Origin: a virus
Lineage: Duplodnaviria > Caudoviricetes
Reading direction: 5' to 3' (one strand)
Length of the DNA: 64,000 bases
Virus record (IMG/VR): IMGVR_UViG_3300037067_021941
Location: 1-64,000 of that record
Shown: in pieces, positions 10,150-40,877 of the stretch
How positions within the stretch are numbered: the first letter of the stretch is position 1
Layout of the letters: every line of letters starts with the position of its first letter
Position numbers and translations under genes: made by a program
The notes under the pieces: generated by a model
What the model was told of the DNA's origin: nothing
Seen by the model: only the letters and a program-made list of their open reading frames with translations
Database searches by the model: none

Positions 10150-10850
10150 AACAGGTTTGTTTGTTCGCGCAACTCTAACCGGTTTTCGGTTTCCACATCC
10201 GCCGCATGCCATATTTCACCAAAAAAGAAAGAGTCAGGATTGACGTTAGCAGCGAAATCATTCCATGAGCAGATAAAGCATGGTGCCAACTGCAACGGAA
10301 CAATCACCCTATTCTTCCTATTTTTGGTGTGGCTAATATTGAACGAAATTGGTCCACAATTGGCATAGTAATCGAAGAATAAATGTGGAAACCACGGGCT
10401 AGCCTTACCCTTATATATATCGTCCTTAAAACGCAAGTACTCCATAGCTGCCCAGTCAAATGCAACCCAATCTAAGTTCGGGTTTGGCTTGAAAAACACC
10501 ATCGGTTTGATATCAAGTCCTAAAGCCTTAGATGCTAAGTTGGCGTCATAAGTACTCTGGTGGAGCCATTCTGAAAACTTGCAAGTAGAATATCCACTAA
10601 GAATTGACGTAAGGCTAAAACCCTTACCTTTTTTGGCTTCGATATTGAAGCGGCACCGGTTTTTGGTGTCTGCTGGTACTACGTCGCCAGTCAGATCACG
10701 TAAAACAGTATCAGATTCCCTACCCTCAACCCTTCGCCTCCGAAATTCTCTACCAGACCATTCAGTTAATAATTTAGCTACTCGACGCTCGTGACATTTC
10801 GCCGTAGCCACATTAGATTTTCCCACCTGACTTGCTGTTCTGGACATCAT
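10146..10850 (-). CDS. Holliday junction resolvase (PD-(D/E)xK, Hjc-like)
   Basis: HERRVAKLLTEW...FRR...GDVV...FNIEAKK motif order. Confidence 0.7.
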   Translation of the reverse strand: MMSRTASQVGKSNVATAKCHERRVAKLLTEWSGREFRRRRVEGRESDTVLRDLTGDVVPADTKNRCRFNIEAKKGKGFSLTSILSGYSTCKFSEWLHQSTYDANLASKALGLDIKPMVFFKPNPNLDWVAFDWAAMEYLRFKDDIYKGKASPWFPHLFFDYYANCGPISFNISHTKNRKNRVIVPLQLAPCFICSWNDFAANVNPDSFFFGEIWHAADVETENRLELREQTNLL

Positions 10851-11706: not shown

Positions 11707-11721
11707 AATATCATCCTGGAT

Positions 11722-11763
11722 AAAAAGCGGGGGTGTAAGATTTAGAATCTTACACCCCCTGCG
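11722..11763 (-). terminator. Intrinsic terminator after ssb
   Basis: gggggtgtaagat/atcttacaccccc stem followed by TTTTT on the minus strand. Confidence 0.85.
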
Positions 11764-11782
11764 ATAAATCTTACAATTAAAA

Positions 11783-12982: not shown

Positions 12983-12991
12983 GTGAATCTC

Positions 12992-13507
12992 CTAGGTTTG
13001 TCTACCAGATTGTTCTTTTTCTTGACGTTTAAAACCAGCCAATGATCGGCTATGTTCTGATCGCAATCTTATTGCTTCTACCATGTGATATACTTTACCA
13101 CAATTTCTCTGTAATATGGCAAGCTCTGCCTCTGATTTTACTAATTCCGGATCGCCTTCTATCAGTGCATTCGTTTGCTTGTCTGTTGTTTTATTGTTGT
13201 GAGCACGAAATTCTTCGATAATTCTGCGTAATATAGCGTGTCGCTTCGATCTCATCTTTAGTTCCAATATAGCAATAGCACACCTAAGCTCGCTGTAAAT
13301 AGCAGCCCAATAAATATATTGAGCGGGGATACGTTCGTGCTGCTCTTCTAATATTTCAAAGTTAATATCGATATCTTGAGCCAAATTGACTTCACAAATA
13401 GTACCATTCTGCAGTCTCACGGCGAATTTGAATAAATTACTATTCGCCAAGTCGAGAGGAACATGCTCTTGAAACCACTGTGGCATATCATTTTTTTCAT
13501 CTGTCAT
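12992..13507 (-). CDS. uvsY: Recombination mediator UvsY-like
   Basis: IDIN...LEEQ..RIPAQYIYW..., long helical C-terminus; between SSB and polymerase-like gene. Confidence 0.65.
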   Translation of the reverse strand: MTDEKNDMPQWFQEHVPLDLANSNLFKFAVRLQNGTICEVNLAQDIDINFEILEEQHERIPAQYIYWAAIYSELRCAIAILELKMRSKRHAILRRIIEEFRAHNNKTTDKQTNALIEGDPELVKSEAELAILQRNCGKVYHMVEAIRLRSEHSRSLAGFKRQEKEQSGRQT

Positions 13508-13544
13508 AGTAATTCACCTGTGTAAATAACTATCATCAAATACA

Positions 13545-14735
13545 TCAAGCTTGAAACCTATCTACATCTAAGTACAGCCCACACGGTTTCCATTGACACC
13601 ATTTTTTACCAATATTAACCCGTACTGGGAATATTGGATTATCGCTTAATATTCCGGAAAATGGTCTACACATAATGTTTGCTATTGTGCGAATTGTCGG
13701 CTTCAATGCATTTTTATTACAAGCAATAGTTATAGAATCGTGAGTCTCAACTAACAATCTAAAATGCAATTCCCACACTTTTCTAATCGTCAACTGCATT
13801 GCTTGTGCTATAGAACCTTGCATCGTAGCATTGAAAGCAGATCGTGGTCTTTCTGCGTTAAAAAATTCTCTACCTAAGATACTCATAACAGATTGTCCAT
13901 TATCTAACTTTTGTTTCTGCATAACCATCCATTCACGTAAAATTGGAAATATTTGAAATATTGGATGATCTACATCAATAGCATTAATCGAGCGTAATAG
14001 CATAGTCTTGCAATCTTTTCTGGGTACGTCTAATATTTCAGATAGTTTTTGATATGGATCTAATTCAAGAGACATCCTATTAAGTTCTTCATCGCCACTA
14101 AGAATCGCAGCAATACGTATATCAGCCGCTCGCCAATCGAAGTTTATAAAATAATCTGATTGATTGCCGTATGGGTCTGAAATAATGTCTTTTTCAGTAG
14201 TGCCCTGTAAATTAAAACCGGTATTTTTACTTCTTCCACTAATCGTCCTGTGAGTCCATTTCGGATATTTATGTAAACCGCCAACTAAAATGCCTTGCCG
14301 CTCAAGACTCTCATATACAACGGACGCATTTGCTGCTATATATTGCCATTTTTGTAGTCTTCGTTTTTGTAATTCCGACAGCATATTATGAATGACATAC
14401 GACAGCTCATCAAAAGTGTCTGGTATCTCTTTTGGTAGCGGAAGAAAAACATCAAAAACTTTCAACTTTTCTCTTGGTAAAATAAAGCGGAACCCAGTTA
14501 GAATGGACTTGAAGTCATTAGTTACGATTATTTTATCGCGTAACAATGTCCGTTCAATCAATTTGTTTATCTTCTTAAAAGACGCTTCAATATCATAAAT
14601 TTTTCTATCGGCACTGGTGAGATAAATTGGAACTATGATGTCTTTACCAAGAGTTCGTATACCAACTATTATTGGTCTTGACTTCTTGTCGAATAGCGCA
14701 CAAAAATAACTGATAGAATCATTAACGAGAACCAT
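13545..14735 (-). CDS. Short family A DNA polymerase-like protein (no exonuclease motifs, thumb deleted)
   Basis: TISGR, FDWRAADIRIAAILSGD (motif A), RKDCK (B), AFNATMQGS, THDS (C). Confidence 0.75.
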   Translation of the reverse strand: MVLVNDSISYFCALFDKKSRPIIVGIRTLGKDIIVPIYLTSADRKIYDIEASFKKINKLIERTLLRDKIIVTNDFKSILTGFRFILPREKLKVFDVFLPLPKEIPDTFDELSYVIHNMLSELQKRRLQKWQYIAANASVVYESLERQGILVGGLHKYPKWTHRTISGRSKNTGFNLQGTTEKDIISDPYGNQSDYFINFDWRAADIRIAAILSGDEELNRMSLELDPYQKLSEILDVPRKDCKTMLLRSINAIDVDHPIFQIFPILREWMVMQKQKLDNGQSVMSILGREFFNAERPRSAFNATMQGSIAQAMQLTIRKVWELHFRLLVETHDSITIACNKNALKPTIRTIANIMCRPFSGILSDNPIFPVRVNIGKKWCQWKPCGLYLDVDRFQA

Positions 14736-14742
14736 AACTCGA

Positions 14743-15153
14743 TTATGTCAAGAAGTGCTTCTTATCTGTTTGTCTTCTACCACCAGTGCGAAGCTTATCA
14801 GTGAGTTCTGCCTTATCGTCTGGCGTTCTCATATACCCATACGGGTCATTATTTTGCAATTGGTGTAATGCCATATCGCGCTGCAATGCTTTAGCGTTCT
14901 TTTTCCTAAATTCACGCCAATCACCGCCGCGAATGCGATAGCTTTGGTCTGTCCCTAACAACGTGATGTGTGTATCGTGGCTATCACACAACGGGCACTT
15001 TGTTAACTTTTGCAGTTTTTGCTTTGGCGGAAATTTTATACTATGTGAAACTTCAAAGACAATTTCAGACTGCTCGTCGTCAGTTAGTGGTCTACCCACC
15101 TCCTTCTCACGTGCAGCAATGCAATCGTTGCAGATATAGTTATATCGTGGCAT
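14743..15153 (-). CDS. FmdB-like zinc-ribbon protein
   Basis: MPRYNYICNDC...FEV...CPLCDS. Confidence 0.65.
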   Translation of the reverse strand: MPRYNYICNDCIAAREKEVGRPLTDDEQSEIVFEVSHSIKFPPKQKLQKLTKCPLCDSHDTHITLLGTDQSYRIRGGDWREFRKKNAKALQRDMALHQLQNNDPYGYMRTPDDKAELTDKLRTGGRRQTDKKHFLT

Positions 15154-15161
15154 TATTGCCT

Positions 15162-15569
15162 CTATTCTTTTGCTTTATCGACACCGATTACATACACAGA
15201 TTCACCATCGACTGCCGCCAGCAAATTGTGGTATTTGACTAGTAAAATGCGGGCTTTACCGTAGAATGCATAAAGCCTGTCTAAGTTACAAATTACTGGT
15301 TTAGGCGAAAATCTGACTGTAGTTCCGATAGCGAAAACAGTCTTCATTTCTTCTGGTACGAGAGGCCCCATACCAACAATAATGCCGATGACTGACTCTT
15401 CGTCAGGAACAATAATATTGCTCTCTTTTCGAACAGCAATTGGCGCAATTGCAACGTAGTCATTAGCAACACCGATTTGAGTAATCTGATATGAACCTTT
15501 TTTAGGTTGTATCATCTCAACAGTGTCAACAAATGATCTCGCCAATAAAATTTCTTCTGGGCTCGACAT
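15162..15569 (-). CDS. groES: GroES-like co-chaperonin
   Basis: NDYVAI...ESNIIVPD...GIIVGMGP...IGTTVRF...LLVKYHNLLAAV follows the Cpn10 pattern. Confidence 0.7.
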   Translation of the reverse strand: MSSPEEILLARSFVDTVEMIQPKKGSYQITQIGVANDYVAIAPIAVRKESNIIVPDEESVIGIIVGMGPLVPEEMKTVFAIGTTVRFSPKPVICNLDRLYAFYGKARILLVKYHNLLAAVDGESVYVIGVDKAKE

Positions 15570-15579
15570 ATTATCTCCT

Positions 15580-17001
15580 CTAAATTGGAATTTCTGTGAT
15601 TTCCATCTTATCGTAGAATACGTTTGTAGTTATAGAAACAAACTTCGGACCATTACGATTTTTTGCTATCCAAAGTCTAATAACTGACGGAATATTTTTA
15701 GCAACATCACCTCTTCTATATTCATCTTCCGTCTGATTTAAGCTAACAACATAGTCAACAGGCATAGCCTTACCAAAACTCTCTGCTGCTTTGTCTAAAT
15801 CTATGTGTGCTGGTGCCGCCTGTGCACCGCCGCCTTGGTTATTACCTTGGTTACCACCCTTTACTCCCATGCGATTTGTCTGTGTCGCAGAATAAACTAA
15901 CACATTCTCATTTTTGGCAAGACCTCGCATCTCCGTAGCCACACTCTTTTGTCTTGTATAGTCACCTTCATCATTATTATGAGAATGGCGACTTAGCATA
16001 AGCTCTAAATAGTCAAGGACAACTATTTTAGGAATCCAGCCCTTTGTTTTACGATTGGTTTCAATAATGCCGTATACGTCGTTCACACTACATTCATCTG
16101 GTGGCAATTCATAAATCACCAGATCACCATTCTTATCTCTTCCATCTTGTACAACACCACGCACTTTTGCCTGACTTGCTCGTATTTTCTGCTGTTCATC
16201 ATCAGGAAGTGTGTCAATGTTTGCACGTGAAAAATCTCTTATAGCTGTCTTAGACATTCGGCTAGCTAATCTTATAGCTGTTTTATATGTAGAAAGTTCA
16301 AAGGTAATAAATAAGACGTTATATCCTTGCTCTACAGCAGCGTTCGCCATATTTATGAGCGTTAATGTCTTACCAACGCCAGTTGGTGCCAAAATGATCA
16401 ACACTTCTCCAGGAGACGGGCCACCTTCGTTAAGCTTTTTATCTAAGTCTTTAAAACCAGTACTGATATGCTCTATCGCAGTATCCAAAAATATTTCATC
16501 AATCTGATCAAAAAACCAAAACCCTTGATTTCCGATCATACTGATACTGGAAGCAGAGTCAACTATTTTACGAAGAAACTCATGATCACCACGCTGGTGA
16601 GCGGCTAATGCTTCATCAGAATATAATTGAGCATAAGATTGGTGCTCAACCCATTCACGAAGAGTCTGCCGCAAAATAGGTGCTTCTCTTGGATCGGATG
16701 GTCTGTCAACGATAGCTAATATTTCTTCAAACGGATCCTCCATTGTCAACTGCTTAGCAAGACGATCGTGTAATAAGGCACGCGTTGGTATAATTCCAAA
16801 TTTGTCGTAGTCTTGTTTCAATGCTGCAATGACATATTTTACTTCCGGCCTTACAAACAACTCCGCTTTTATGAATTTAGATGTTGGGATATATAATTCT
16901 GGAAAATCAAGTATCAATGATATGATACCAGCTTCCATATTTGGGCCGAAAGGTGTGTCGACAGAATCTGCCTCCTGTCCTACTTGAAGAGCTTCTATCA
17001 T
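15580..17001 (-). CDS. dnaB: Replicative SF4 DNA helicase (DnaB / T4 gp41-like)
   Basis: STGFKDLD, APTGVGKT, FITFE, VLDYLELM, SATQTNR, IAKNRNGP. Confidence 0.92.
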   Translation of the reverse strand: MIEALQVGQEADSVDTPFGPNMEAGIISLILDFPELYIPTSKFIKAELFVRPEVKYVIAALKQDYDKFGIIPTRALLHDRLAKQLTMEDPFEEILAIVDRPSDPREAPILRQTLREWVEHQSYAQLYSDEALAAHQRGDHEFLRKIVDSASSISMIGNQGFWFFDQIDEIFLDTAIEHISTGFKDLDKKLNEGGPSPGEVLIILAPTGVGKTLTLINMANAAVEQGYNVLFITFELSTYKTAIRLASRMSKTAIRDFSRANIDTLPDDEQQKIRASQAKVRGVVQDGRDKNGDLVIYELPPDECSVNDVYGIIETNRKTKGWIPKIVVLDYLELMLSRHSHNNDEGDYTRQKSVATEMRGLAKNENVLVYSATQTNRMGVKGGNQGNNQGGGAQAAPAHIDLDKAAESFGKAMPVDYVVSLNQTEDEYRRGDVAKNIPSVIRLWIAKNRNGPKFVSITTNVFYDKMEITEIPI

Positions 17002-17319
17002 TTATGTCATCCCTTGATATAAACGTTGCAAAGCTGCGAGTTGCGTTTGCAAGTTTGATATACATAGCTCAAGTGCTTCTTTATATCCGATCAAGTCTTC
17101 TTCATAGAATCTGATTGGCAATGTTCTTTGGCCAGTTACTCTATCACCAATAGTTTGGATAGCGGTTGGAGATTTTAATGATGTTGCCAACGTATAAATT
17201 AATCTACCACTCGGCTGATAGCCCATATCCTTGATAATGTAAGCTTCTAAAAAACCTAGAGAAGCTGATTCTTTTAAATATACTGTCTGTCCAATGTCAT
17301 AAACCGGTGCTTTAGCCAT
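17002..17319 (-). CDS. Hypothetical protein
   Basis: 105 aa, translationally coupled between recA and helicase. Confidence 0.65.
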   Translation of the reverse strand: MAKAPVYDIGQTVYLKESASLGFLEAYIIKDMGYQPSGRLIYTLATSLKSPTAIQTIGDRVTGQRTLPIRFYEEDLIGYKEALELCISNLQTQLAALQRLYQGMT

Positions 17320-18464
17320 TACTCTACCTCGTCAAAGCTTGATTCGTCTATTTCTTCTGTATCTTTGGTAGAGCTATCGGCAGTAACCGGGCCAGTTATC
17401 TGACCAGTCTCCATAATGCGACCCACTTCTTCAGAAACAATCTTAAACAATTCGGTATCATCAGTCAATACAGCAACAAGCTTATCTTTTCCAATAGCTA
17501 TCTTACGCTCGCCAAGATAATAGTTTGCTCCTCTTAGGGTAATTACTTTTGTCTCAATACTGGCATCAATTAATGACTTTGCCTTGTTGAAGCCATAAAT
17601 ACCATCTGCACCAAAATGAATTTCAAGTACAGCAGATCGAAATGGTGGAGCTACTTTATTTTTAGCAATTTTGATTTTGGTATTCATACCAATTGGACGA
17701 TTATTCTCACGAAGTGTTTCAGCCCTACGCACTTCCAATCTAACAGAAGAATAAAATTTCAAGGCCCTTCCACCAGGCGTAGTTTCTTGCTTTATATAAC
17801 TTGGGCCTCCTTGACCAATTTTATCACGTAATTGGTTGATAAATATTACAGTAGTATTGGTCCTAAGACATTTGCCAGCTAATTTGCGTAATCCCTTAGA
17901 CATCAATCTTGCTTGTGCACCAATTGTAACATCGCTTATATCGCAATCCAATTCTTCTTGCGGTACAAGTGCAGCCACAGAATCTACTACAACGAGCCCA
18001 ACTATACCAGAATGGACTAATGCAGTCAAAATATCAAACGCTTGATTACCACTATCAGGTTGAGATAATAACCAATTCTTGACATCAACACCAATATTAG
18101 TCGCCCAGTCATAATCTAATGCGTGCTCTGCGTCAACATAAGCGACTAATTTACCATTTTTCTGAAAGCTGGCAACTATTTGTAAGGCGAGCGTTGTCTT
18201 GCCGCTAGATTCAGCACCATATATTTCTATAATCCTTCCGTCTGGAATGCCGCGACAACCAAGAGCGATATCTAAACTGGGCAGTCCAGTTGATATTGAT
18301 TTTGTCGGCTTGATAGCTGTTTCACCACCCCAATGAATCGAATCACCAAATTTTTTCTCTAACTCGGCGTACATCTCATCAAAACTCATCTTTATAATCG
18401 GCTCGCCGAAATCATCTGTTTCTGCGGATTTATCTAATTTCACAACTGGTTTCTTTTTTGCCAT
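17319..18464 (-). CDS. recA: RecA/UvsX recombinase
   Basis: GRIIEIYGAESSGKTT, DAEHALD, VVDSVAALVP, FINQLR, TTPGGRALKFYSSVR, KNKVAPPF. Confidence 0.97.
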   Translation of the reverse strand: MAKKKPVVKLDKSAETDDFGEPIIKMSFDEMYAELEKKFGDSIHWGGETAIKPTKSISTGLPSLDIALGCRGIPDGRIIEIYGAESSGKTTLALQIVASFQKNGKLVAYVDAEHALDYDWATNIGVDVKNWLLSQPDSGNQAFDILTALVHSGIVGLVVVDSVAALVPQEELDCDISDVTIGAQARLMSKGLRKLAGKCLRTNTTVIFINQLRDKIGQGGPSYIKQETTPGGRALKFYSSVRLEVRRAETLRENNRPIGMNTKIKIAKNKVAPPFRSAVLEIHFGADGIYGFNKAKSLIDASIETKVITLRGANYYLGERKIAIGKDKLVAVLTDDTELFKIVSEEVGRIMETGQITGPVTADSSTKDTEEIDESSFDEVE

Positions 18465-18757
18465 TATTTCCTATTACCTTTATAACAGACTTCTGCCAGA
18501 CAATTTAATACTTGTTGGCGATTATGAGTGCCAGCTTTTCTAACATCTCCTAAAGGAATGCGTATAAGTGTATCATCTTTTGCAAGCAGAGCATCACCAT
18601 CTATTATCCCCACAACACTCCATTTGCCATGCGGGCTGGGTGAATACCCCGGTTTAGTAGATAGATATTTAACTCGTTTGACTGTTAATAATTCAACTTG
18701 ATCAAGTTGTTGAATTATAGGTTTTGGTTCCTCTGGTAAGTAATTGGAACTATTCAT
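18464..18757 (-). CDS. Hypothetical protein
   Basis: 97 aa, TAATG coupling to recA. Confidence 0.6.
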   Translation of the reverse strand: MNSSNYLPEEPKPIIQQLDQVELLTVKRVKYLSTKPGYSPSPHGKWSVVGIIDGDALLAKDDTLIRIPLGDVRKAGTHNRQQVLNCLAEVCYKGNRK

Positions 18758-18792
18758 CTATCATTCAAGCAAAATTTTAATAGGAGAATGCC

Positions 18793-19236
18793 ATGGACAA
18801 CAACGAAAAACTACTGACCGAAGCAGTCCAAACATATTTACAGCACAAGGTCAAGCTTGGAATATCGGACCCACCAAAAGACCTTGCCGATGCCGATGCT
18901 AAATCTCTACAATTTTTACATGAGCAGATCAACGATTTGTTTGAGCTTAAGTCAGTCGATTTAGTATGCCATGAAGGAGTGTGTAGGGCTTTCCGTAAAG
19001 TACACAATTATAAATATATTACTGACCCATTGTTCACAAAAGCCCTAATGCAGGAAATGCAAAGTGCTGGAGTACTTGGGGCCGAGCAGGAAAAAGTAAT
19101 GGGAATTTTGGACACTATCAAAGAAGAGGTTAGTGATGGCGAGGGATGGTGTGAACAAGATGCAGGGTACCATCCAGATCTAAAAGGAATAATTGCCGTT
19201 AGTAAACCGGGACAATCACCAGGTAGTGTAGAATGA
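18793..19236 (+). CDS. Hypothetical protein
   Basis: 147 aa, AGGAG RBS. Confidence 0.65.
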   Translation: MDNNEKLLTEAVQTYLQHKVKLGISDPPKDLADADAKSLQFLHEQINDLFELKSVDLVCHEGVCRAFRKVHNYKYITDPLFTKALMQEMQSAGVLGAEQEKVMGILDTIKEEVSDGEGWCEQDAGYHPDLKGIIAVSKPGQSPGSVE

Positions 19237-19481
19237 AGCTATTATTGTTAAGCGAGGGTGATCTAATAAAAGCCCTAGCACGTGCTTCTGGTGCTCAATA
19301 TGGGCGTAAGCCACTGCTTCAAATGACTACTGTTGATACCAAACCAGAAAATGGCGGAGATTCCGGTTCTAGAGCATCTGGTTTTACATCACAAGCAAGT
19401 GGTGTTCCGATGAAGCCAAGACATCGTAGATTTTTAGGCGTATCTACCAGACAATTTAGTTTGTCACCGCCAGGATTATAA
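19233..19481 (+). CDS. Hypothetical protein
   Basis: 82 aa, ATGA overlap. Confidence 0.55.
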   Translation: MKLLLLSEGDLIKALARASGAQYGRKPLLQMTTVDTKPENGGDSGSRASGFTSQASGVPMKPRHRRFLGVSTRQFSLSPPGL

Positions 19482-19483
19482 TC

Positions 19484-19762
19484 TCACCATCTAGCAAAAG
19501 TTATATTGCCTATCTTAAATAAATATTTAGGCGGATTGTTTGCTGCATATTGAAAATGTACATCGTTGGTTATATTCCACCCAAATAGCGTATAATGATA
19601 TCTCGTTTTCGATACTAATCCGATTAATGTCATTAAAAAACCAATAAAAGAAATGAGAACTACCCAACACGGCACGTTAGATGATTCAAAATAAATATAA
19701 ACAACCAACAATGATATCAGTAATGTAGCAATACAACTAAAAACACGCCATTTATATGTCAT
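19484..19762 (-). CDS. Small membrane protein (2 TM)
   Basis: Two hydrophobic segments; coupled to the upstream ORF. Confidence 0.55.
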   Translation of the reverse strand: MTYKWRVFSCIATLLISLLVVYIYFESSNVPCWVVLISFIGFLMTLIGLVSKTRYHYTLFGWNITNDVHFQYAANNPPKYLFKIGNITFARW

Positions 19763-20568
19763 TATAGCATGCCTGATCCATTACATTTCGGGCATATCAT
19801 GGTTTCCGTCTGACTCTTTTGAATTTGTCCATTGCCTTTACACATAGGACAGCGTTGAATGTCATAGCCATCTTTAAAATAATGTGAAGCCGCGCCAGAT
19901 TCATCATTGACAGAAGTATTAGCTTGCTGTCTGAATCTGCGTTGCAATTCAGTATCGGTCATAGTTTTAGCGATTCTGACTCTCGTTGTACCAAGACCAT
20001 CTTGCCTGAGTGCCGGAATTGCTAATGGCGTACCATGCCTACCTTCAGCCAGTTCCATTCTTACCAATCCATCTCTTGCACCATCCGGCAATTTACTTTC
20101 TAATTCATTGGGATTGTAAGCGTTATGTCTTTCAATACCAGTCCCATCAACAGACCCAGACACACCAGCAACACGCCCTTGCATGACGCTATCAACTTCA
20201 GAAGTTGGTAGTATACCATCCTGTCTGCTGCCGCGTAATTCAGATGAAATTTGCTGATCAACTGGGCTCGTTTGATTTGGTGTCGTACGGCTTGTATTAT
20301 CTTTAGTAGCAACTACTAGGCCGCTACCTTGTGGTACCACAGTCATTCCAAGTTTAGCAGCTTGTGCTAAAAATTCTTGCATCTGAGTATCTCGCTCAGA
20401 TTTCCATTTTAAATATGCCGCCTTTGCTGCTTTTGGAGTTATGTCGTCAGCGTGCTCTGTGCAAACCTTAACGGTAATCTTCTGGCCATCAACGGTTATA
20501 ACTAATTCTGTGTCAAGGCCGCTGTCTGTTCCACATATTATACAACTACGATTTTCTATGGTTGTCAT
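19762..20568 (-). CDS. Protein with N-terminal zinc finger and C-terminal DnaJ-type CxxCxGxG repeats
   Basis: CIICG...CTEH; CPMCKGNG...CPKCNGSG. Confidence 0.65.
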   Translation of the reverse strand: MTTIENRSCIICGTDSGLDTELVITVDGQKITVKVCTEHADDITPKAAKAAYLKWKSERDTQMQEFLAQAAKLGMTVVPQGSGLVVATKDNTSRTTPNQTSPVDQQISSELRGSRQDGILPTSEVDSVMQGRVAGVSGSVDGTGIERHNAYNPNELESKLPDGARDGLVRMELAEGRHGTPLAIPALRQDGLGTTRVRIAKTMTDTELQRRFRQQANTSVNDESGAASHYFKDGYDIQRCPMCKGNGQIQKSQTETMICPKCNGSGML

Positions 20569-20608
20569 TGGCTAAGTCATCTTTCTACGAGTCTGTACAT
20601 TTTATGCT

Positions 20609-20638
20609 CGTATTTAAATCCTGGTAATTTTAAATACG
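20609..20638. promoter_or_regulatory. Inverted TTTAAATACG pair; candidate back-to-back promoters
   Basis: cgtatttaaa-N10-tttaaatacg between divergent genes. Confidence 0.45.
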
Positions 20639-20657
20639 CAACAAAAGGATAATTAAT

Positions 20658-21074
20658 ATGGCAAAAATTAACGTTATATCGGTTGATCTTGGTGATCCTA
20701 TCGAGAAAATTATCTCTGAGGACGTTCGACAACTCAGTGAAGAAACTCTTGCCAATATTAAAATGGCAGCAAACGAGAAATCTAAGGGTCCTATTAGAAC
20801 CGATCCGGAAACTCTCGCCACTCAAGCTGCATATGATTTGTTATTTGCGGCAGTCTCAACAGGAGACACAATTGAAATCAGCAAATTAGTTGAAGCATCT
20901 AGTCCAGCTGTTACCAATCCATCATCGCTTATGATGCGAATGAAGGGGCTACTGCGACAAAAAGGTAACGAATACATACTACGAAAAAGTACTAGTGCGG
21001 GTAAACCAGTATATCGCTTAGTGCCATATAATCTCGAAGAGCCAGAAAATCCAGATTCTATTCAACCACAGTAA
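20658..21074 (+). CDS. Hypothetical protein (possible winged helix)
   Basis: 138 aa, AAGGA RBS; helix-helix-beta-hairpin (GKPVYRL). Confidence 0.6.
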   Translation: MAKINVISVDLGDPIEKIISEDVRQLSEETLANIKMAANEKSKGPIRTDPETLATQAAYDLLFAAVSTGDTIEISKLVEASSPAVTNPSSLMMRMKGLLRQKGNEYILRKSTSAGKPVYRLVPYNLEEPENPDSIQPQ

Positions 21075-32814: not shown

Positions 32815-34452
32815 TTATTCTGCTTCTGATTGCAGCTTTTGCCAATCTTTTTTAGTCCAAAGAGGTTCTATAACAGTCCCCCTCTGTAAAACAAAACTAT
32901 TACGATCTTTATCGTAATCAACTCTTAATCTAACACCCTTGTCGGCCACTAATAATCTCTTATTCTGATTTCTAATGTCTTGCTCCCACATTAACACCAA
33001 ACAGGTCTTACGCCCGTCAGATATTATCATTCGAAGCATTGCAGAACCTCTTTTAGTCCTACCTTCTACTACGCTTACTATTACTCCCTCTAAACAATCA
33101 TTAACCTTAGACTTTTCAACGGTGTGATCGCCAGTGATACGATATAAATCGATAGGAGAATGCCAATGATAACCTAAAAATTGTTTTTCAAATCTAAGAA
33201 CCTGATCGAATGAATAATCTTCTGAGTATAAAGATGCAATATCTGTATGCGTAGCTTTAATGATTGGTCTATAATTCAGTATCTTCGCAGGTATTACTTT
33301 TCTCTTCGGATATGTCTGTTTGAATACCGCGATCTGACGCTCCCTTTCTGCTGCAATTGTTTCTTCTGTCCAATTAGCTTTTGCCATAAGACAACGCATA
33401 TGATAATTCTTCAATATCTTAATTGGGTAGCTGAAACTCTTTAATTTCGACTTCTTGTTAAGCTGTTGTTTTTTTGATTCTGCTATCTCTGCCTTAGCTT
33501 GTTCATCGACGTCTTTAAATTCAAAATCTTCGACAGTACCAGAGCCATGCTCATGGAGGTACCACATCCATGTAGCTCTTTTGTTTGGGTGTAACTTAGA
33601 AAACGCACCCAATTTTATTAGTCGCTCAAAAAGAATCTTACTCTTGCCTTTTTTCTCAATAAAATCGTCAATATCTGTATAAATATTATTACCGACTTTA
33701 TCAACAAATGCTATCGCCGCCTTATCACCAATTTTCTTTAGACTTGTTAAACCAAGTGCTATATGTTTATTTGATACGTTGAGACCAGAGTGTGCAGTTG
33801 GATGCAATGTAAGCTTTGCTATGTCAATTTCACCAAATTTGACGTCTTCACCACGTGCGGCAGACATATATCGTTCAAGAGCCTGTTGGTCACATGTCCC
33901 CATTACGCTCGCCCACCATTCTTCGGCGAAATGTGCTTTAAGCCAAAGACAACGATATGCCCATAAGCAATAGCAGATAGCATGACTTAAATTAAAAGCG
34001 TATCGACCGAATGTCTCCATCTTATCCCAATATTCACGTGCTTTCGACTCGCCAATCTTCTTACTTGCACCAGTCAGCCAATGTTCTCTAACTGGCTTTA
34101 ATTTCTCTTTCCATTTCTTTGCAACTGCTTTTCTTGCATCTTGCGATTCTGGACCAGTAAACCCCGCAATGCATTGCCATATGGATGTAAGTTGCTCTTG
34201 AAACACAATTACACCGCTTGTTATGCTTAAGATTTTGACAATATCTGGGTGTTCACCTTGTGCCCATCTATTGCTGGTGTCATCGCGATTTTTGACATAA
34301 TCTGGGATAGAATTGTGAACCAAAACACTATTGGCAAAGAAATTACCCTCATTCTGCCAACATTGCTCAAAGTTGCCAATATCATAAACATCTTCTTCGT
34401 CGCACTCTTCGATGCTTATGATTTCAGCTAATTCTAAACCATCTGTGCCCAT
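32815..34452 (-). CDS. dnaE: DNA Pol III alpha fragment 4: split-intein IntC (34312-34452) + C-terminal extein
   Basis: VYDIG...NFFANSVLVHN/S; then GVIVFQEQ, FGRYAFNLSHA..Y, LGLTSLKKIG, EKQFLG, OB fold. Confidence 0.93.
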   Translation of the reverse strand: MGTDGLELAEIISIEECDEEDVYDIGNFEQCWQNEGNFFANSVLVHNSIPDYVKNRDDTSNRWAQGEHPDIVKILSITSGVIVFQEQLTSIWQCIAGFTGPESQDARKAVAKKWKEKLKPVREHWLTGASKKIGESKAREYWDKMETFGRYAFNLSHAICYCLWAYRCLWLKAHFAEEWWASVMGTCDQQALERYMSAARGEDVKFGEIDIAKLTLHPTAHSGLNVSNKHIALGLTSLKKIGDKAAIAFVDKVGNNIYTDIDDFIEKKGKSKILFERLIKLGAFSKLHPNKRATWMWYLHEHGSGTVEDFEFKDVDEQAKAEIAESKKQQLNKKSKLKSFSYPIKILKNYHMRCLMAKANWTEETIAAERERQIAVFKQTYPKRKVIPAKILNYRPIIKATHTDIASLYSEDYSFDQVLRFEKQFLGYHWHSPIDLYRITGDHTVEKSKVNDCLEGVIVSVVEGRTKRGSAMLRMIISDGRKTCLVLMWEQDIRNQNKRLLVADKGVRLRVDYDKDRNSFVLQRGTVIEPLWTKKDWQKLQSEAE

Positions 34453-35591
34453 AGTCCACCAATGAAATTATTAGAACTTTCAACTATATTAACAAGCCGC
34501 TGGTCGTTGATGCTTTTATTACAATACAGCTCTTTTTCCGTGATTAGCTTGTATGATGAATTATGGCAAGCGGCATACTCAACACCAGCCTTAATTTTCG
34601 CAATTTCTCGTTTTTCGTCATATATCTGCGGATTGCTGGCCTTAATTTCGACCATCCTACACCCATCAATAAGGAAATCGCAAAAATACCGATGACCTTG
34701 CCATGGTATTATAGGACGATTTCTTAATAATGAAATTGGCTTAAATCGCTCACACCAAACAATAAAATCAAGTTCATATGAAGAATCGTACGGATAACAT
34801 TGGCCAAAATATTCACTGAAATATTTATGTTTAATAGTGAAGTTCGGATGATTCTCTAGCCAACGCCTCCAGCACTCTTTGGAACAGAATTTACGAGACC
34901 ATTTACTGCAAACAGATAAAAATGGTGCTCCACATGACTTGCATTTAGTTTGCTGAACACGCGCAGCCAATGCTGGATCAATTACGTAATTCGGATGAAC
35001 AAGACGTTTGCGATAAGAAAGCCAACATGATGATGAACAAAAAATTAAACCAGATGCATATCTACGACTAGCGGTTTGAATAAATTGTTCGCCGCATTCT
35101 CCACAACATACCAATTCAGGATCTTTAGCGAATGGATATGTGTGTTGAAACCATTGAATGTCGAGAGAATGTTGTTGTCTAATTTCGTTTTGTTTGGCGT
35201 TACCGGCAGCAACGAACACCGCTAACATATTACGTCGATCTTCTACTGAAGCCGATTTAACCTTTTTAACCCAGGATTGACGAGCGTCCGATAGTTGTTT
35301 GCAGTCAGCCTTGAATCGTCCCGCAGACCACATTGATTTATTTTGGTCAGCACGACGTATACGTTCAAAAGTAGTATTCATCCTCTCGCGCGTTTTGTCT
35401 GCATAAGACCGTATCGACTCATTAGTCTGTTCAGTCAATCCTTTATTCCATGGTGGAGGAGTTGCAATATTCAACTGAAATTCACGTGCTATACGATAAA
35501 TATATGCAACATGAACACACAGTTTTTGGCTTATACTCTTCGCGTATTCACCGTTATTGACCAGCCGGATTATTTCCTGTTTTTTCGACAT
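34434..35591 (-). CDS. Free-standing homing endonuclease-like protein (zinc ribbons + TnsA-like PD-(D/E)xK)
   Basis: CGECG/FCSSSC and CKSCG/FCSKEC; YDSSYE...YFCDF...VEIKA...ITE; out of frame between intein halves. Confidence 0.75.
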   Translation of the reverse strand: MSKKQEIIRLVNNGEYAKSISQKLCVHVAYIYRIAREFQLNIATPPPWNKGLTEQTNESIRSYADKTRERMNTTFERIRRADQNKSMWSAGRFKADCKQLSDARQSWVKKVKSASVEDRRNMLAVFVAAGNAKQNEIRQQHSLDIQWFQHTYPFAKDPELVCCGECGEQFIQTASRRYASGLIFCSSSCWLSYRKRLVHPNYVIDPALAARVQQTKCKSCGAPFLSVCSKWSRKFCSKECWRRWLENHPNFTIKHKYFSEYFGQCYPYDSSYELDFIVWCERFKPISLLRNRPIIPWQGHRYFCDFLIDGCRMVEIKASNPQIYDEKREIAKIKAGVEYAACHNSSYKLITEKELYCNKSINDQRLVNIVESSNNFIGGLWAQMV

Positions 35592-37164
35592 ACAATTTAT
35601 CTTTGATTGACAATTGCCCGACTGGTTTAATGCCGAAATCACCAAACATCCAATGGTTGGCGGAAGCTTTAATCGTCGCACCATTACTTAAACGAATACG
35701 ATATACTTTTTTGCGTCCTGTCTTGAAAACCCTATAATTGTCAGTGAGATCCGAATTACCTTTCGAATTAACATATTTTATCTTGTGTACATTATGATCT
35801 ACCTGATCAATCCTAATGTTGCCTATATTAGTGCTAACTAATGTATCGGCAGCTAAACACTGCATCGGACCAGGATGCCCCATAGCATTAAAAATCAATA
35901 AGTCTCGAAAGCTATGCACGCCAGCGGATAATGTTCGTTTAGCAAGCTCAGTATCAAATTGGAAAATACTGTCAGTCTGTGAATCGTTAGCTAATTTTAA
36001 AGCCGCTGGGTCTTCTAGTGGTATTGTCTTCTTCTCACCATTCTCCCAATAATATCCAGCAACGTTATTAATCTGATCAGAATCGTCCCATCCTTGCAGT
36101 TGGTCACCAAATGATATGCCATGATTCTCCCTGATCATCTCACACGCTGTCTTTATATATGATAGGTTCTTCAACCCAAGTATATCCCATTTGACATAGC
36201 CAAATTTCGATAATTGTGTATTGCGGCCCTCCGTCCATATGCTTACCCATTGATCGGTCTTTTTGTCATATTGCATCGGTACATTACCGAATAAATCCCG
36301 ATCCGCAATAATAAGACCACCAGCATGTTTTCCTGCGTGCTTAATGCGACCAACTAGACGTATCGCAGTATCGATTACCTGCTGATGTGCCTCCTTATTC
36401 TCTGCTACAAATTGCCCAATCTCCGGATGGTCTCTCATTATCATAGCGATAGTTGGTGTGTCAGTATCACCGCTATGACATTGTGGACATTCTAGACCTT
36501 TGTGTTTGAAACCACATTCTTTGTCGACACCATCCTCTTTTACACGACCTTTACAAGCACCATATCCACCTTCGCGCATTTCATTAACTTCATCTGGCAA
36601 GATTTTTGTTAATTCAATCGCTCTATTTTTAGTGCCTTGATCTCGATCTATCTTTTCAAGCCCAAGTCCAGAATAGGCATCTGCGATAGCTTGCTTTAAA
36701 AGATAAGCCTGCCAAGTACCAACACTTGCCACATTACGTTTCCCATATCGCTTAGCGACATAATCTTTAATCTGGTTCCTAGCTTCTGGTAAACAATCAA
36801 TGTCTATATCTGGTTTATCGTCGTCTTGACGAATATCAGATGGTAGTTTACCAGTCTTTTTTAAGACAGCTTGAACATCGTCATACCTCGCACTAAGCAT
36901 CAATGGACCATTTCTATGTGCGATTGGATCGATATTTGCATCACCAGTGAAACGATTAAGTAGCCATGGTAGTAGAAGTTGATTTGGATTTTTATCAAAC
37001 TCTTTACCAGATTCTATCAGATCTTCCCAATACCTTTGGGCTCCTTGCATGCGAATCTGATCTAATTCAAAATCTAGTCGCTTGGTATAAATCTCTGGTA
37101 AGCTCAATCGCTGTATCTTTTTATGGGCGATTTGTGCAATTTTCTCAAATTCAAATTTACCCAT
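35554..37164 (-). CDS. dnaE: DNA Pol III alpha fragment 3 (catalytic palm) + split-intein IntN (35554-35859)
   Basis: PDIDID, GKHAGG, KWDILGLKNL, IFQF, HPGPMQ/CLAADTLV...ASANH. Confidence 0.93.
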   Translation of the reverse strand: MGKFEFEKIAQIAHKKIQRLSLPEIYTKRLDFELDQIRMQGAQRYWEDLIESGKEFDKNPNQLLLPWLLNRFTGDANIDPIAHRNGPLMLSARYDDVQAVLKKTGKLPSDIRQDDDKPDIDIDCLPEARNQIKDYVAKRYGKRNVASVGTWQAYLLKQAIADAYSGLGLEKIDRDQGTKNRAIELTKILPDEVNEMREGGYGACKGRVKEDGVDKECGFKHKGLECPQCHSGDTDTPTIAMIMRDHPEIGQFVAENKEAHQQVIDTAIRLVGRIKHAGKHAGGLIIADRDLFGNVPMQYDKKTDQWVSIWTEGRNTQLSKFGYVKWDILGLKNLSYIKTACEMIRENHGISFGDQLQGWDDSDQINNVAGYYWENGEKKTIPLEDPAALKLANDSQTDSIFQFDTELAKRTLSAGVHSFRDLLIFNAMGHPGPMQCLAADTLVSTNIGNIRIDQVDHNVHKIKYVNSKGNSDLTDNYRVFKTGRKKVYRIRLSNGATIKASANHWMFGDFGIKPVGQLSIKDKLYVEKTGNNPAGQ

Positions 37165-37170
37165 GATATC

Positions 37171-37644
37171 TTATAATAATGTAGTAATTGTATTGCTGTC
37201 GCTATTGATACCAGTCTCTACTGTTGTTTTAGCTATATCAAAAGCTTGTTGCAATTGTTCTTTTGTTCCAATTAATACTATCAAATTTTCAAATAAATCA
37301 GCTTTCTCACGAAAACGACGTATCAACTCGATATTTTTCTTAGGCACCAACTTGAATTCGCCGTCTACACGTTCCATAAACTGCGCAACGTACTTAGTTG
37401 TAACTAATTCGACTGGTGCTTTGCGTAGTCGCAATACAGGAGTTGCTTTAATGCTCATCAAACCCAATATAGCAGCTTTCAGATCACATTGAGGTCCTGT
37501 ACTGCTACCAACAAGCTCACTGATAACTCTTATGGCCTTACGATCATGATCGTCAACATAATGCAATCCGGCAGCACAAGCACCGCGTTGTGTCGGTTTA
37601 CCGTTATCAATGCTATAACCGCAAGCATATATTGAAATCTTCAT
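37171..37644 (-). CDS. RNase HI-fold protein, catalytic acids apparently lost
   Basis: IYACG...STGPQCDLKAAILGL...VTTKYV...KNIEL aligns with RNase HI IxTDG...TNNRxEL...TDSQYV...KNxDL. Confidence 0.6.
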   Translation of the reverse strand: MKISIYACGYSIDNGKPTQRGACAAGLHYVDDHDRKAIRVISELVGSSTGPQCDLKAAILGLMSIKATPVLRLRKAPVELVTTKYVAQFMERVDGEFKLVPKKNIELIRRFREKADLFENLIVLIGTKEQLQQAFDIAKTTVETGINSDSNTITTLL

Positions 37645-38099
37645 TGTTCTCCTCTAAGTTTTTTACCGTCAGCATCAGTGAGTTGTGGATATTCAGCGCC
37701 AGTAATCTCTTTGAGTTGAGCAATCGCCATGCCAAGTACATTAAAAAATACAGTGCAACGCTCAGATGTGTTTATTGATTCAGTAACCTTCATACAATCA
37801 ATAATGCTTTTCATACTAGCGTTGGCCTTAATGCGAAGTTCAATTGCATTGTATGTATTTGTTAACTCTTTCAGTCTATCTAATATTCCTAGTATCGCAG
37901 CTTCAAGAGAAATAGCAGCAAGCGTATAGAGCGTTTTAGCTTGATCGGTATCACCAGGCGGAAGACATCCAATGAATTCAATCAATCTCATATTCATCTG
38001 CCCTAACAACGGGCATGGTTCGCCCACTAAGAGTAAATAATCGCTCATAGCGGCATGTAACGATTTTAATGACGATTGAAAAATATCTTTAGCCATCAA
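37641..38099 (-). CDS. Hypothetical helical protein
   Basis: 152 aa, overlaps both neighbours. Confidence 0.6.
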   Translation of the reverse strand: MMAKDIFQSSLKSLHAAMSDYLLLVGEPCPLLGQMNMRLIEFIGCLPPGDTDQAKTLYTLAAISLEAAILGILDRLKELTNTYNAIELRIKANASMKSIIDCMKVTESINTSERCTVFFNVLGMAIAQLKEITGAEYPQLTDADGKKLRGEQ

Positions 38100-38406
38100 T
38101 TTTAGTCCTTAAAAGATAACCACCACGCGAACTAGCTAAGAAACGATCAAAACTCAACTTCCATTTAAGACTATTGATATTATGAATGCCAAGCAAATAA
38201 CACACAAGTGAGCCAGCAGCCGAATTGGAGCTGAAAACGCCATTTAACCTGTAAGTGTTGGTATTACTTACTTGCAAATCAAACACCTTACCTGTGTAAT
38301 GACGCCTCGATATGCTTTTTATTTTTAGCCTCTCTACGGAACCTGCTGATACCAATGCTTGCAATTCGCTGATGTTTCGGATCTGTGAAGGCAATAATTG
38401 TTGCAT
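38089..38406 (-). CDS. dnaE: DNA Pol III alpha fragment 2: split-intein IntC (38224-38406) + 44-aa extein
   Basis: KIKSI...VFDLQV...YRLNGVFSSN/SAAGSLVCYLLGI...SFDRFL..R; start uncertain (38406 or 38442). Confidence 0.88.
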   Translation of the reverse strand: MQQLLPSQIRNISELQALVSAGSVERLKIKSISRRHYTGKVFDLQVSNTNTYRLNGVFSSNSAAGSLVCYLLGIHNINSLKWKLSFDRFLASSRGGYLLRTKIDG

Positions 38407-39304
38407 TGTTAATCTCTCCGATTTGTTTCCACATATGTCCACCGCCCAACCTACGTAGAATACATTCAGTTAGTAGTCTTTCAGTGTCGTATAGTATATA
38501 CGAGTCTGCAATGCCTGTTTCAGCGATATAACTATTTGCCGCTGTTTGTTTTTCAGCAACATTACTCTTATAGAAACCTTTCACTTCGATTATCGTCCGC
38601 TCACCATTTCTATCAACTACGAAGAAGTCTGGATGATAGAAATGATTACCATATGCAATTGCAAAATTACACCTTCTAATTTTGCTATATTTATTTCTTA
38701 CACCCCATAGAAATATCAGTTCGTATGCACTATCAAACCTTATCTTATGCCCGTTAATCAGAACCGTACCTTCGACAGATCGACTTCTTCTACGGTGTTT
38801 ATTAGCATATTCCGGATCGATCTGCATTGTTTTATTATGCAGATCGAACGCTCTCAAGCACTGTATTCTATAATCTTTATTCTGCCATAGTAATCTACTA
38901 TTATTTCTATTTAATTCTAATTTCGCAGGCTCATTTTGTATCAAATTATCGAGACATTTTAAACAGATATTGTCATATTGGTAATGCTTTCTATCTGCGA
39001 GTTTAGACCATCGTATGCGGTACTCACAACCACATTCATGACATTCAAATCTAACTAATATCTTTGAAGATACTCCCATCAGATATTTTATTGCTATTTT
39101 GTAGTCTATACAACCACTGAATATCTGATAATGAAATTCTTCCGGAACAGCCTTAAACACAGCGCTAGATTTTGCTAATTTAAGTAAACATTTTCGGCAT
39201 ATATGCTCGTTTTTATATGTCTCTCTATATCTTAAATTATGGGTTGTCGTTGCACAATTCACACCACATTTTTCACAATTATAAGTAATCCTGACATATT
39301 TCAT
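38288..39304 (-). CDS. Free-standing homing endonuclease-like protein (zinc ribbons + TnsA-like PD-(D/E)xK)
   Basis: CEKCG/CRKC, CHECG/CLKC; FDSAYE...YHPDF...IIEVKG; start uncertain. Confidence 0.75.
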   Translation of the reverse strand: MKYVRITYNCEKCGVNCATTTHNLRYRETYKNEHICRKCLLKLAKSSAVFKAVPEEFHYQIFSGCIDYKIAIKYLMGVSSKILVRFECHECGCEYRIRWSKLADRKHYQYDNICLKCLDNLIQNEPAKLELNRNNSRLLWQNKDYRIQCLRAFDLHNKTMQIDPEYANKHRRRSRSVEGTVLINGHKIRFDSAYELIFLWGVRNKYSKIRRCNFAIAYGNHFYHPDFFVVDRNGERTIIEVKGFYKSNVAEKQTAANSYIAETGIADSYILYDTERLLTECILRRLGGGHMWKQIGEINNATIIAFTDPKHQRIASIGISRFRREAKNKKHIEASLHR

Positions 39305-40877
39305 GGGTACGGGTGGCTTGTTGGTCCTGTAAGCTACCAATGATTTCATCTGTATCTTTGATTTCAGATGCCGGCAAAAGCATAACCAAGCCACCCCTGA
39401 TAACATATAATTTATGATCGGCAGTGATTGTTATCATACAACCATCTAATTCAAAGACAAACAACTCCTCTGAAACATCATAAATAAATTTATTCTCAAC
39501 GGTTTGTTCATTTCCAAAGCCATCTTGTATCTTGTCTCCTATCTGGATATCTTCAATTTTCTTTTGTTGGTAATGATTGATATTTATTAGCGAGTCTGGA
39601 ATAGTGCAGCCGCGAGGCCCAAATATCCAGCCTTGTCGTTTACCCCATTGTATCCAGTCTCTAGTTATCAAGAAATAACTAGAAAAGCCCTTATCAATAA
39701 ATCGGTTTAACTCTATCTCTGCTTGTTCTGCGTACGTGACATCACGCCCATCACATGACCATTTTGTTGTATCTTTGTCCCAGCCACGTAAATGAAGCTG
39801 TTCATTGACTATAGCACGCAACACATCATTGGCATTTGTTCCAGGTTCTATAACCGACCAATTTGGAATTTTGGGTGACGTATCTGGCATAAGTTTATCA
39901 CATCGTTCTGCAATTAACAGCGTATTATCGCACATTTCTTCAAATTTGACGTCGTCTATTCCGTTAGAATAATCACCATTCTTGAATGTCGTCCAAAGCT
40001 CTGCTCGCGATTTGAAAAACTGCTCATCGCCCTGTGATGCGAACATTTTAGTATCATGAATATTGGTTTTCTGATCGACCGCCATCATGATCTTCTGCAG
40101 ATATGCGTCTTCACGTGTCAGATAATGAGCGTCATTTGTAAGCACTAATCTAACACCATACTTATCAGCAAGTTCAATAAGTTGGTGAAAAACAGCGACG
40201 TCATGTAACTCAGCGATGCACGGCATCTGCACTTCGATAAAGAAATCTTCACCAAACACTCCCTTGAATTCTTTTAAATATTCAATTGCCGTCTTGTCGG
40301 CTCTACTACGCGGATATTTCTTTCCATCTTTAATATTATTTTCAATGTCTAGCCGCAGTTCATATGATAACGGACCATTAACACACCCAGATAAAACAAT
40401 TAATCCTTCTTTGAGTTCGCATAATCTTTCAAACCAAATACGAGGTTTGCCAATATATGAGTGTTCCCAAGCCAACGTTGTTAATTTAATCAGGTTAGAA
40501 ACACCGGTAGAGTTCTTTGCTAAAACGGTTAAGTGCCGATTACGCATAATACGCTGTTTAAGACTATCAGGTAATAAATCACGTTTTTTTCCTGATTCTT
40601 CAATTTTCTTACGCAAAGTCTCATAGGCATTGAAATATATCTCAGAACCACTTATATACTTCAAACCTCGTTTCTTGAAAGCAAAATGCATATCTGGAAA
40701 AGATGCCATGTGGCCATGCTCTGTAGCGGCCATGGCTGGAAAGCCAAGCTTCGCACAGGCGTCTGCATATTGTTCTGCTGATGGTACTCCGTCTAAAGAG
40801 CTGAATAAAGAATGCACATGTAAATGCGCAAATTCTTTGGGACCATTATACTGAGATGGTTCAATTTCTTCCAACAT
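39279..40877 (-). CDS. dnaE: DNA Pol III alpha fragment 1 (PHP domain) + split-intein IntN (39279-39608)
   Basis: HLHVHS..S.LDG, TEHG, TNDAHY, GFSSYFLI, GPRG/CTIPDS...TADHK. Confidence 0.94.
   Translation of the reverse strand: MLEEIEPSQYNGPKEFAHLHVHSLFSSLDGVPSAEQYADACAKLGFPAMAATEHGHMASFPDMHFAFKKRGLKYISGSEIYFNAYETLRKKIEESGKKRDLLPDSLKQRIMRNRHLTVLAKNSTGVSNLIKLTTLAWEHSYIGKPRIWFERLCELKEGLIVLSGCVNGPLSYELRLDIENNIKDGKKYPRSRADKTAIEYLKEFKGVFGEDFFIEVQMPCIAELHDVAVFHQLIELADKYGVRLVLTNDAHYLTREDAYLQKIMMAVDQKTNIHDTKMFASQGDEQFFKSRAELWTTFKNGDYSNGIDDVKFEEMCDNTLLIAERCDKLMPDTSPKIPNWSVIEPGTNANDVLRAIVNEQLHLRGWDKDTTKWSCDGRDVTYAEQAEIELNRFIDKGFSSYFLITRDWIQWGKRQGWIFGPRGCTIPDSLININHYQQKKIEDIQIGDKIQDGFGNEQTVENKFIYDVSEELFVFELDGCMITITADHKLYVIRGGLVMLLPASEIKDTDEIIGSLQDQQATRTHEICQDYL

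Follow-up and report, generated by a model that had tools for sequence, protein, structure and literature searches.

The window, that is, the whole stretch of 64,000 nucleotides analysed here, comprises the first 64 kb of the 93,134-bp virus record IMGVR_UViG_3300037067_021941 (estimated completeness of the record about 26%). The closest relatives of this genome are uncultured phage contigs of 234–388 kb. The window carries a family-C polymerase gene, dnaE, which is spread across four open reading frames (ORFs A–D) on the minus strand and is interrupted by two split inteins whose halves have opposite charge polarity. ORF A (39279–40877) encodes the PHP domain and the start of the palm. Its extein of 423 residues (39609–40877; Pfam PHP, E=1e-32; DNA_pol3_alpha profile positions 16–66) ends in GPRG and is followed by the N-terminal half of intein 1 (IntN1, 109 residues, 39282–39608), with Cys1, the block B motif TADH and then a stop codon. 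ORF B (38089–38442) consists of the C-terminal half (IntC1, 38224–38406, 61 residues from a conserved Met), which ends in FSSN before Ser+1, and of 44 extein residues (38092–38223; DNA_pol3_alpha profile positions 66–98) that begin with SAAGSLV, include FDRFL and lead to a stop codon without an intein; this short extein is 79–93% identical across most relatives and 67% identical in the relative L015. ORF C (35554–37164) encodes the palm with its PDIDID motif and the start of the fingers; the extein (435 residues, 35860–37164; Pfam DNA_pol3_alpha and DNA_pol3_finger) has a duplicated, degenerate head, ends in HPGPMQ and is followed by IntN2 (101 residues, 35557–35859), with Cys1 and block B SANH. 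Finally, ORF D (32815–34452) starts with IntC2 (47 residues, 34312–34452), ending in VLVHN before Ser+1, and continues with the remaining fingers, HhH and the C-terminal domain (498 residues, 32818–34311; DNA_pol3_finger profile positions 82–165 and HHH_6). Shine-Dalgarno sequences precede both C-terminal halves, GGAGAG upstream of the conserved IntC1 Met and GGTGGA upstream of the IntC2 ATG. No intein beyond these two was detected in the available sequence of this incomplete record.

Nine related IMG/VR loci (L001–L009) were retrieved with piece C, and later scans added further fragments; a single metagenome scan gave only six loci, its back-translated search patterns being unspecific. All loci compared here for inteins 1 and 2, and in the dnaE survey described below, are uncultured contigs. 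In five of the relatives (L001, L003, L005, L007 and L009) neither intein is present, A being contiguous with B and C with D, and these loci supply precise intein-free alleles; C and D are contiguous in L004 as well. In both inteins of the window, Cys1 sits exactly at the junction defined by these alleles, block B conforms to (T/S)xxH, and the terminal Asn and Ser+1 are intact (SSN/S for intein 1 and VHN/S for intein 2, the slash marking the splice junction). The penultimate His is kept in intein 2 and is replaced by Ser in intein 1, as it is in L004, L015 and P0004, a related DnaE protein in which, as in the two loci, the FSSN ending and the position of the IntC1 Met are also conserved. This His is missing from some active inteins. 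Both inteins are predicted to be active in splicing.

The halves of each intein are encoded by distinct ORFs that have stop and start codons of their own and lie at one locus and on one strand, with a free-standing ORF between the halves; this is the arrangement of a fractured gene. The ORF within intein 1 (HEN1, 372 residues, 38288–39406, minus strand) and that within intein 2 (HEN2, 416 residues, 34434–35684, minus strand) each overlap both flanking halves out of frame. Their matches are weak: sub-threshold Pfam hits to DUF790 and TnsA-like N and a PHROG 'endonuclease' for HEN1, a sub-threshold Pfam hit to TnsA-like N and a PHROG 'HNH endonuclease' family at 2.8e-7 for HEN2. A PDB sequence search gave no usable match for either, and comparison of the two revealed no relatedness. 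HEN1 is 63% identical to its copy in L004 and is absent from intein-free alleles; among the related loci compared, the endonuclease-like ORFs are present or absent together with their inteins. The inteins at site 2 (the HPGPMQ/S junction, site 1 being GPRG/S) in loci other than the window hold a different endonuclease gene, of about 560 residues.

Charge was counted as D/E against K/R only. IntN1 has 20 D/E and 8 K/R (net −12), IntC1, counted from the conserved Met, 3 and 8 (net +5), IntN2 8 and 16 (net +8), and IntC2 12 and 0 (net −12). A preliminary description of this DNA had reached the same figures by hand, and they are exact in all four halves; the interval that it gave, 34312–39608 on the minus strand, corresponds exactly, counted along the coordinates, to the first codon of IntC2 through the last codon of IntN1. 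Its assignment of polarity also stands: intein 1 is of the Npu/Ssp DnaE type (N acidic, C basic) and intein 2 is reversed. When windows of the same length were taken from long ORFs of the same 93-kb genome, charges as extreme were found in 1.4% for IntN1, 9% for IntC1, 5.3% for IntN2 and 0.2% for IntC2; the acidic halves are therefore clearly unusual, and the basic ones moderately so. The charge is also localized. The 24 residues before block B carry net −5 in IntN1 and net +8, the entire net charge of the half, in IntN2, and the part of IntC upstream of the last 22 residues carries +4 in IntC1 and −10 in IntC2 (its first 25 residues). It is these two regions, before block B and at the N terminus of IntC, that make up the 'charge zipper' in gp41-1 and in Npu DnaE (10.1101/546465). 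The charge segregation is thus real and exceeds chance, and it sits on the strands expected to zip the halves together. Both non-cognate combinations are like-charged (IntN1, −12, with IntC2, −12; IntN2, +8, with IntC1, +5).

The two inteins were inserted independently, as judged from their distribution among relatives. L004 carries intein 1 with HEN1 and lacks intein 2 (70% identity for IntN1, 63% for HEN1 and 77% for IntC1), and L015 also has intein 1, on a contig that ends before site 2 could show. Conversely, L002 and L008 have a split intein at site 2 and nothing at site 1, the two halves being 31% and 42% identical to those of the window. A similar site-2 intein is found in L013 (35% and 38% identity), whose contig is too short for site 1, and L006 and L011 carry a split intein related to intein 2 at a position 26 residues upstream of site 2 of the window. 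The window alone has both elements. No sequence similarity was detected between intein 1 and intein 2, and this absence is enough by itself to explain why each half would find its own partner. In P0004, intein 1 occurs as a contiguous mini-intein (residues 154–324) that occupies the same position in dnaE and has no endonuclease ORF; it is 66% identical to IntN1 and ends in FSSN/S, which suggests that split and cis forms of this intein interconvert.

Polarity follows the lineage of each intein. Intein 1 of L004, which is solitary, has charges of −12 (IntN) and +7 (IntC), and the IntC of L015, where site 2 is not visible, carries +6, as compared with −12 and +5 in the window, where the intein is co-resident. 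Likewise, the solitary site-2 inteins of L002 and L008 have +7 and −11, and that of L013, where site 1 is not visible, +5 and −9, as compared with +8 and −12 for the co-resident intein 2. Charge is no stronger in the co-resident copies than in the solitary ones, and there is hence no sign of reinforcement. Since the solitary copies show the same sign and similar magnitude, the polarity difference neither arose from co-residence nor was reinforced by it; to judge from these sequences, polarity is a trait of each lineage and keeps its sign with or without a second intein.

Broader searches gave a similar picture for intein 1. An HMMER search of 1.84 billion representative proteins with IntN1 yielded 105 matches, of which 51 end at the C terminus of the protein and were counted as split IntN. 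Net charge is negative in 47 of these 51, with a mean of −8.4. All ten IntN1 relatives that were checked lie in DnaE, mostly after DNA_pol3_alpha profile position 66–74, as in the window. For intein 2, the best PDB sequence match of IntN2 is the DnaB intein 1mi8 (E=8e-6), and a profile built from four site-2 IntN sequences matched 21 proteins, made up of DnaE pieces and of DnaB and NrdA cis-inteins; a word-based protein search with the IntN2 region of piece C gave no match. IntN2-like split inteins also occur in helicase genes, with charges of +7/−3 in Pectobacterium phage Amona and +8/−2 in Escherichia phage AN_ECEAS. Strong polarity is not universal even in the lineage of intein 2, the relative in L006 and L011 showing no clear charge segregation (IntN −5, IntC −6).

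The helicase genes fractured by IntN2-like inteins belong to cultured phages (Amona, PQ008971.1, our locus L092, and AN_ECEAS, PP944860.1, L093). Their N-terminal helicase piece is annotated just as 'hypothetical protein' in both. A LAGLIDADG endonuclease gene lies between the intein halves in Amona, and none is annotated there in AN_ECEAS.

The preliminary description had proposed a survey of other genes with several split inteins. One match of the IntN1 search, P0020, is a middle fragment of DnaE with an acidic IntC at its N terminus and an acidic IntN (−11) at its C terminus; the partner IntN of the acidic IntC was deduced solely from same-site inteins in L030, L083 and L053. With P0020 as the query, 62 loci from another phage DnaE clade were retrieved, and the intein-free L033 (1173 residues) served as the reference. 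Mapping L033 onto these loci revealed recurrent insertion sites, each with its own polarity. In L033 numbering, inteins at site 185 are N basic and C acidic (IntN +3 to +6, IntC −9 to −11), as are most of those at site 480 (IntN 0 to +6, IntC −8 to −12). The N-acidic, C-basic type is found at site 447, which is GPxRG/S and equals site 1 of the window (IntN −9 to −10, IntC 0 to +3), at site ~715 (IntN −13, IntC +3) and at site 782 (IntN −13, IntC +4). At sites 661 (IntN −9, IntC −1) and 866, where the inteins begin with Ser1 (IntN −4 to −10, IntC −5 to 0), the N-terminal half is acidic. Polarity tracks the insertion site regardless of which other inteins are present.

Opposite-polarity sets were found in the window, in P0020, in L030 (sites 185 and 866) and in L081 (sites 480 and 866), and roughly opposite or ambiguous polarity in L034 and L091. 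Sets of the same polarity also exist. L053 has three split inteins, of which those at sites 185 (+4/−9) and 480 (+4/−12) are both N basic and C acidic. Inteins a, e and f of L036 share the N-acidic, C-basic type (−9/0, −13/+3 and −13/+4), and the IntN of intein g is acidic too; a single polypeptide of this locus (ORF 18728–19342) bears the basic IntC of intein e together with the acidic, non-cognate IntN of intein f. The same-polarity residents of L036 and L053 show that opposite polarity is not required for co-residence, so that the survey does not bear out the idea that it was. The catalytic residues are kept in all of the surveyed dnaE genes with several split inteins.

The dnaE of L036, at 9344–20828 of a 309-kb contig, contains at least five canonical split inteins (sites 447, 480, ~715, 782 and 866). 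It also has one intein that is apparently split very near its C terminus, with an IntC of 17 residues (MVVHSFLASNKSVVVHN), and one break without a recognisable IntC. To our knowledge, this may be the most fragmented trans-spliced gene.

In the scenario that we favour, two unrelated mobile fractured-gene elements, each made of a split intein and a free-standing endonuclease-like ORF between its halves, would have entered, each independently of the other, the dnaE of an uncultured jumbo phage, whose polymerase is already encoded by two genes, with two small ORFs between the AB gene and the CD gene. The intein at the GPRG/S site belongs to a large phage DnaE family that is nearly always N acidic and C basic, and that at the HPGPMQ/S site to a DnaB/helicase-type lineage with the reverse distribution. 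In each case the acidic and basic halves would be brought together by electrostatic capture and would then fold and splice in trans, yielding A-B and C-D. The opposite polarity may add some kinetic discrimination against the pairs IntN1/IntC2 and IntN2/IntC1, specificity coming mainly from the unrelated interface sequences. We regard it as probable, at roughly three chances in four, that these are two ordinary fractured-gene elements which arrived independently, and that their opposite polarity reflects the chance meeting of lineages of fixed polarity.

The preliminary description had seen in the opposite polarity a possible built-in orthogonality code that stops mis-splicing between IntN1 and IntC2. 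Part of this holds. The non-cognate halves are indeed like-charged, which should slow their mis-pairing under capture-and-collapse, and the A-D product of such mis-splicing would be without the PDIDID palm motif, as had been stated; specificity, as argued above, would come mainly from the unrelated interfaces, and like-charge repulsion is at most a helpful by-product. The relative weight given here to charge and to interface sequence in fidelity is our reading of the sequences. The notion of a built-in code fares less well, for the polarity is the same in solitary relatives and characterizes the wider families, it is not reinforced in the window, co-residents of the same polarity exist, and the two inteins are unrelated.

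Several points nevertheless weigh against the favoured scenario. Among the adjacent pairs that could be resolved in the survey, about six are of opposite polarity, three of the same polarity and one ambiguous, and there may be weak filtering for opposite polarity. The acidic IntN1 query may have biased the search toward acidic relatives, and the IntC start codons are uncertain in several loci. Moreover, a full charge swap of Npu DnaE is reported to have suppressed or reduced cross-reactivity (cited in 10.1101/546465), so that charge can matter. As to the tally, it is compatible with chance given the roughly balanced polarities of the families, and the pairs are few and not independent.

The strongest competing explanation is a code that was selected or filtered, opposite polarity being needed or strongly favoured for coexistence so that only such combinations persist. 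The like-charged non-cognate halves of the window, the opposite polarity in P0020, L030 and L081, and the finding that NpuDnaB halves can be made orthogonal by engineering their charges (10.1101/546465) are all in line with it. We nonetheless hold it unlikely, because the polarity was there before co-residence and shows no reinforcement in the window, because L053 and L036 harbour inteins of the same polarity (one L036 polypeptide even joins a basic IntC to the acidic IntN of another intein), and because the pair tally cannot be told from chance and its pairs are not independent. A wider form of the idea, in which polarity is a selectable natural fidelity filter and adjacent inteins of opposite polarity are favoured when several act on one polymerase, seems to us doubtful, if marginally less so. 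Were such a filter real, the dnaE genes of the window and of L036 would represent naturally evolved orthogonal sets of split inteins whose rules could be read from sequence.

Alternatively, the inteins may no longer splice, their charged halves serving as non-covalent docking modules comparable with those of the fragmented NrdA of phage Aeh1. This would suit the missing penultimate His of intein 1 (SSN rather than HN) and a gene that already works as separate AB and CD proteins, and PMC3045599 provides a precedent for assembly through domains derived from mobile elements. We consider it improbable, because Cys1, the His of block B, the C-terminal Asn and Ser+1 are retained by the two inteins and by their divergent relatives alike, because the FSSN/S ending is conserved in L004, L015 and the contiguous P0004, and because the junctions coincide exactly with the sites of intein-free alleles. 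The least probable reading is that the charge bias is accidental, a matter of composition that plays no part in association, as the moderate rarity of the basic halves (5% and 9% of same-length windows) might suggest; the acidic halves are rare (1.4% and 0.2%), and the charges are complementary within each pair, lie on the expected strands and are conserved at 31–77% sequence identity.

The reading of the two inteins as independent arrivals of fixed polarity agrees with published work. Both charge polarities have been described for fractured-gene split inteins by Dassa et al. (2009, PMC2677866), charge segregation is a general property of split inteins (PMC11923092), and gp41-1 has the polarity opposite to that of Npu DnaE (Beyer et al., 10.1101/546465). 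In the latter study, Npu DnaE with swapped β3/β6 charges still spliced with the wild-type partner, and charge changes rendered NpuDnaB halves orthogonal. Both polarities and charge-based orthogonality are therefore already in print (Dassa 2009; Beyer 2019). Of the 16 split inteins examined by Pinto et al. (2020, PMC7090010), 15 were mutually orthogonal, and five fractured-gene or other split inteins were orthogonal in one pot, same-polarity pairs included; taken together with PMC2677866, this shows experimentally that split inteins of shared polarity are orthogonal when their sequences are unrelated. As both polarities and the use of charge for orthogonality are published, and the polarity seen here was inherited rather than evolved in place, the claim of a charge code adds little.

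As in the fractured genes of Dassa et al., a phage gene of DNA metabolism is cut in the window so that the intein halves fall on adjacent ORFs, a free-standing ORF lies between them and the local charges are complementary. Those fractured genes include three DnaE loci, one of which showed part of a second intein (PMC2677866), whereas in the window a single dnaE system holds two complete elements that are opposite in polarity. The endonucleases described by Dassa et al. are GIY-YIG or Vsr-like, whereas the ORFs of the window match endonuclease families weakly and are candidate endonucleases. Intein 1 resembles the Npu/Ssp DnaE intein in having an acidic N-terminal and a basic C-terminal half and DnaE as its host. 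It differs in its location after GPRG, in the adjacency of its halves (which in Npu/Ssp are at distant loci), in the endonuclease-like ORF between them and in its penultimate Ser instead of His. The cyanobacterial Npu/Ssp DnaE insertion lies in the FAEY/CFNK region. A PDB sequence search with intein 1 gave no match to the Npu/Ssp DnaE inteins. Like gp41-1 and the DnaB mini-inteins, intein 2 has a basic strand ahead of block B, a C-terminal half that is acidic and an HN/S ending, but it resides in dnaE rather than in a helicase gene and is only about 30–35% identical even to its same-site relatives. Engineered charge orthogonality (the Npu DnaE swap and Oth-NpuDnaB) rests on the same idea, namely that like-charged non-cognate halves disfavour association. 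The engineered pairs, however, differ in charge alone, whereas the inteins of the window are unrelated in sequence, and charge is neither their sole nor a needed discriminator.

No natural gene with two or more split inteins was described in the titles and abstracts found by our literature search, which is not proof of absence. Like the dnaE of the window, those of L036, L053, L030, L081, L034, L091 and P0020 are cut by at least two split inteins, several of them at GPxRG/S. These seven belong, however, to another DnaE clade, and their middle fragments combine, within a single chain, an IntC with an IntN that is not its cognate. Phage dnaE genes that contain two or more split inteins, up to at least five, which would have to act next to each other in one cell, neighbours of the same polarity included, amount to a natural test set for specificity. 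They are also a possible source of new orthogonal inteins, which are wanted for the one-pot assembly of multi-fragment proteins.

A single A-B-C-D chain would be an inaccurate picture, since the break between B and C is native and two proteins, A-B and C-D, are the expected products. Two small conserved ORFs, orfX (152 residues) and orfY (157 residues), lie at this intein-free break (37171–38099, minus strand). Every related locus of sufficient length has them between AB and CD, at 46–90% identity, and neither had a Pfam or PHROG match. An Rfam scan of the B/C region revealed no intron that could join B to C. The B/C break is thus native, without an intein, and it recurs in each relative whose sequence is long enough to cover it. 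The possibility that the tail of B is a decayed IntN was rejected, the B tail being conserved in P0004 as ordinary extein. In the clade of the window, the AB and CD genes encode about 467 and 933 residues, respectively. In distant phage DnaE (about 25–30% identity; L014 and L025–L029), A, B and C from residue ~118 onward form one continuous gene, and the first ~115 residues of C align, in tblastn against contiguous DnaE genes, with the stretch that also matches the end of A together with B. This duplicated, degenerate head of CD is without the GPRGSAAGS motif. A BLASTP comparison between the tail of AB and the head of CD found no match, the evidence for the duplication being the tblastn mapping. 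The dnaE of this clade is accordingly bipartite, with a degenerate duplicated segment heading CD. The position of the AB/CD break roughly matches that of the split-intein insertion at site 480 in the other phage DnaE clade.

Two further features of the surveyed inteins deserve mention. The site 480 inteins of L053 and L079 and the site 447 intein of L036 have a short spacer and no endonuclease gene between their halves, measuring 435–465 nt from the start of IntN to the end of IntC; they are fractured genes in which the homing-endonuclease gene was lost or never present. The site 866 intein of L030, L081, L087, L091 and L036 combines Ser1 with SN/S, so that both splice-junction nucleophiles are Ser, and split inteins with Ser at both nucleophile positions have been called rare and sought after (PMC11923092).

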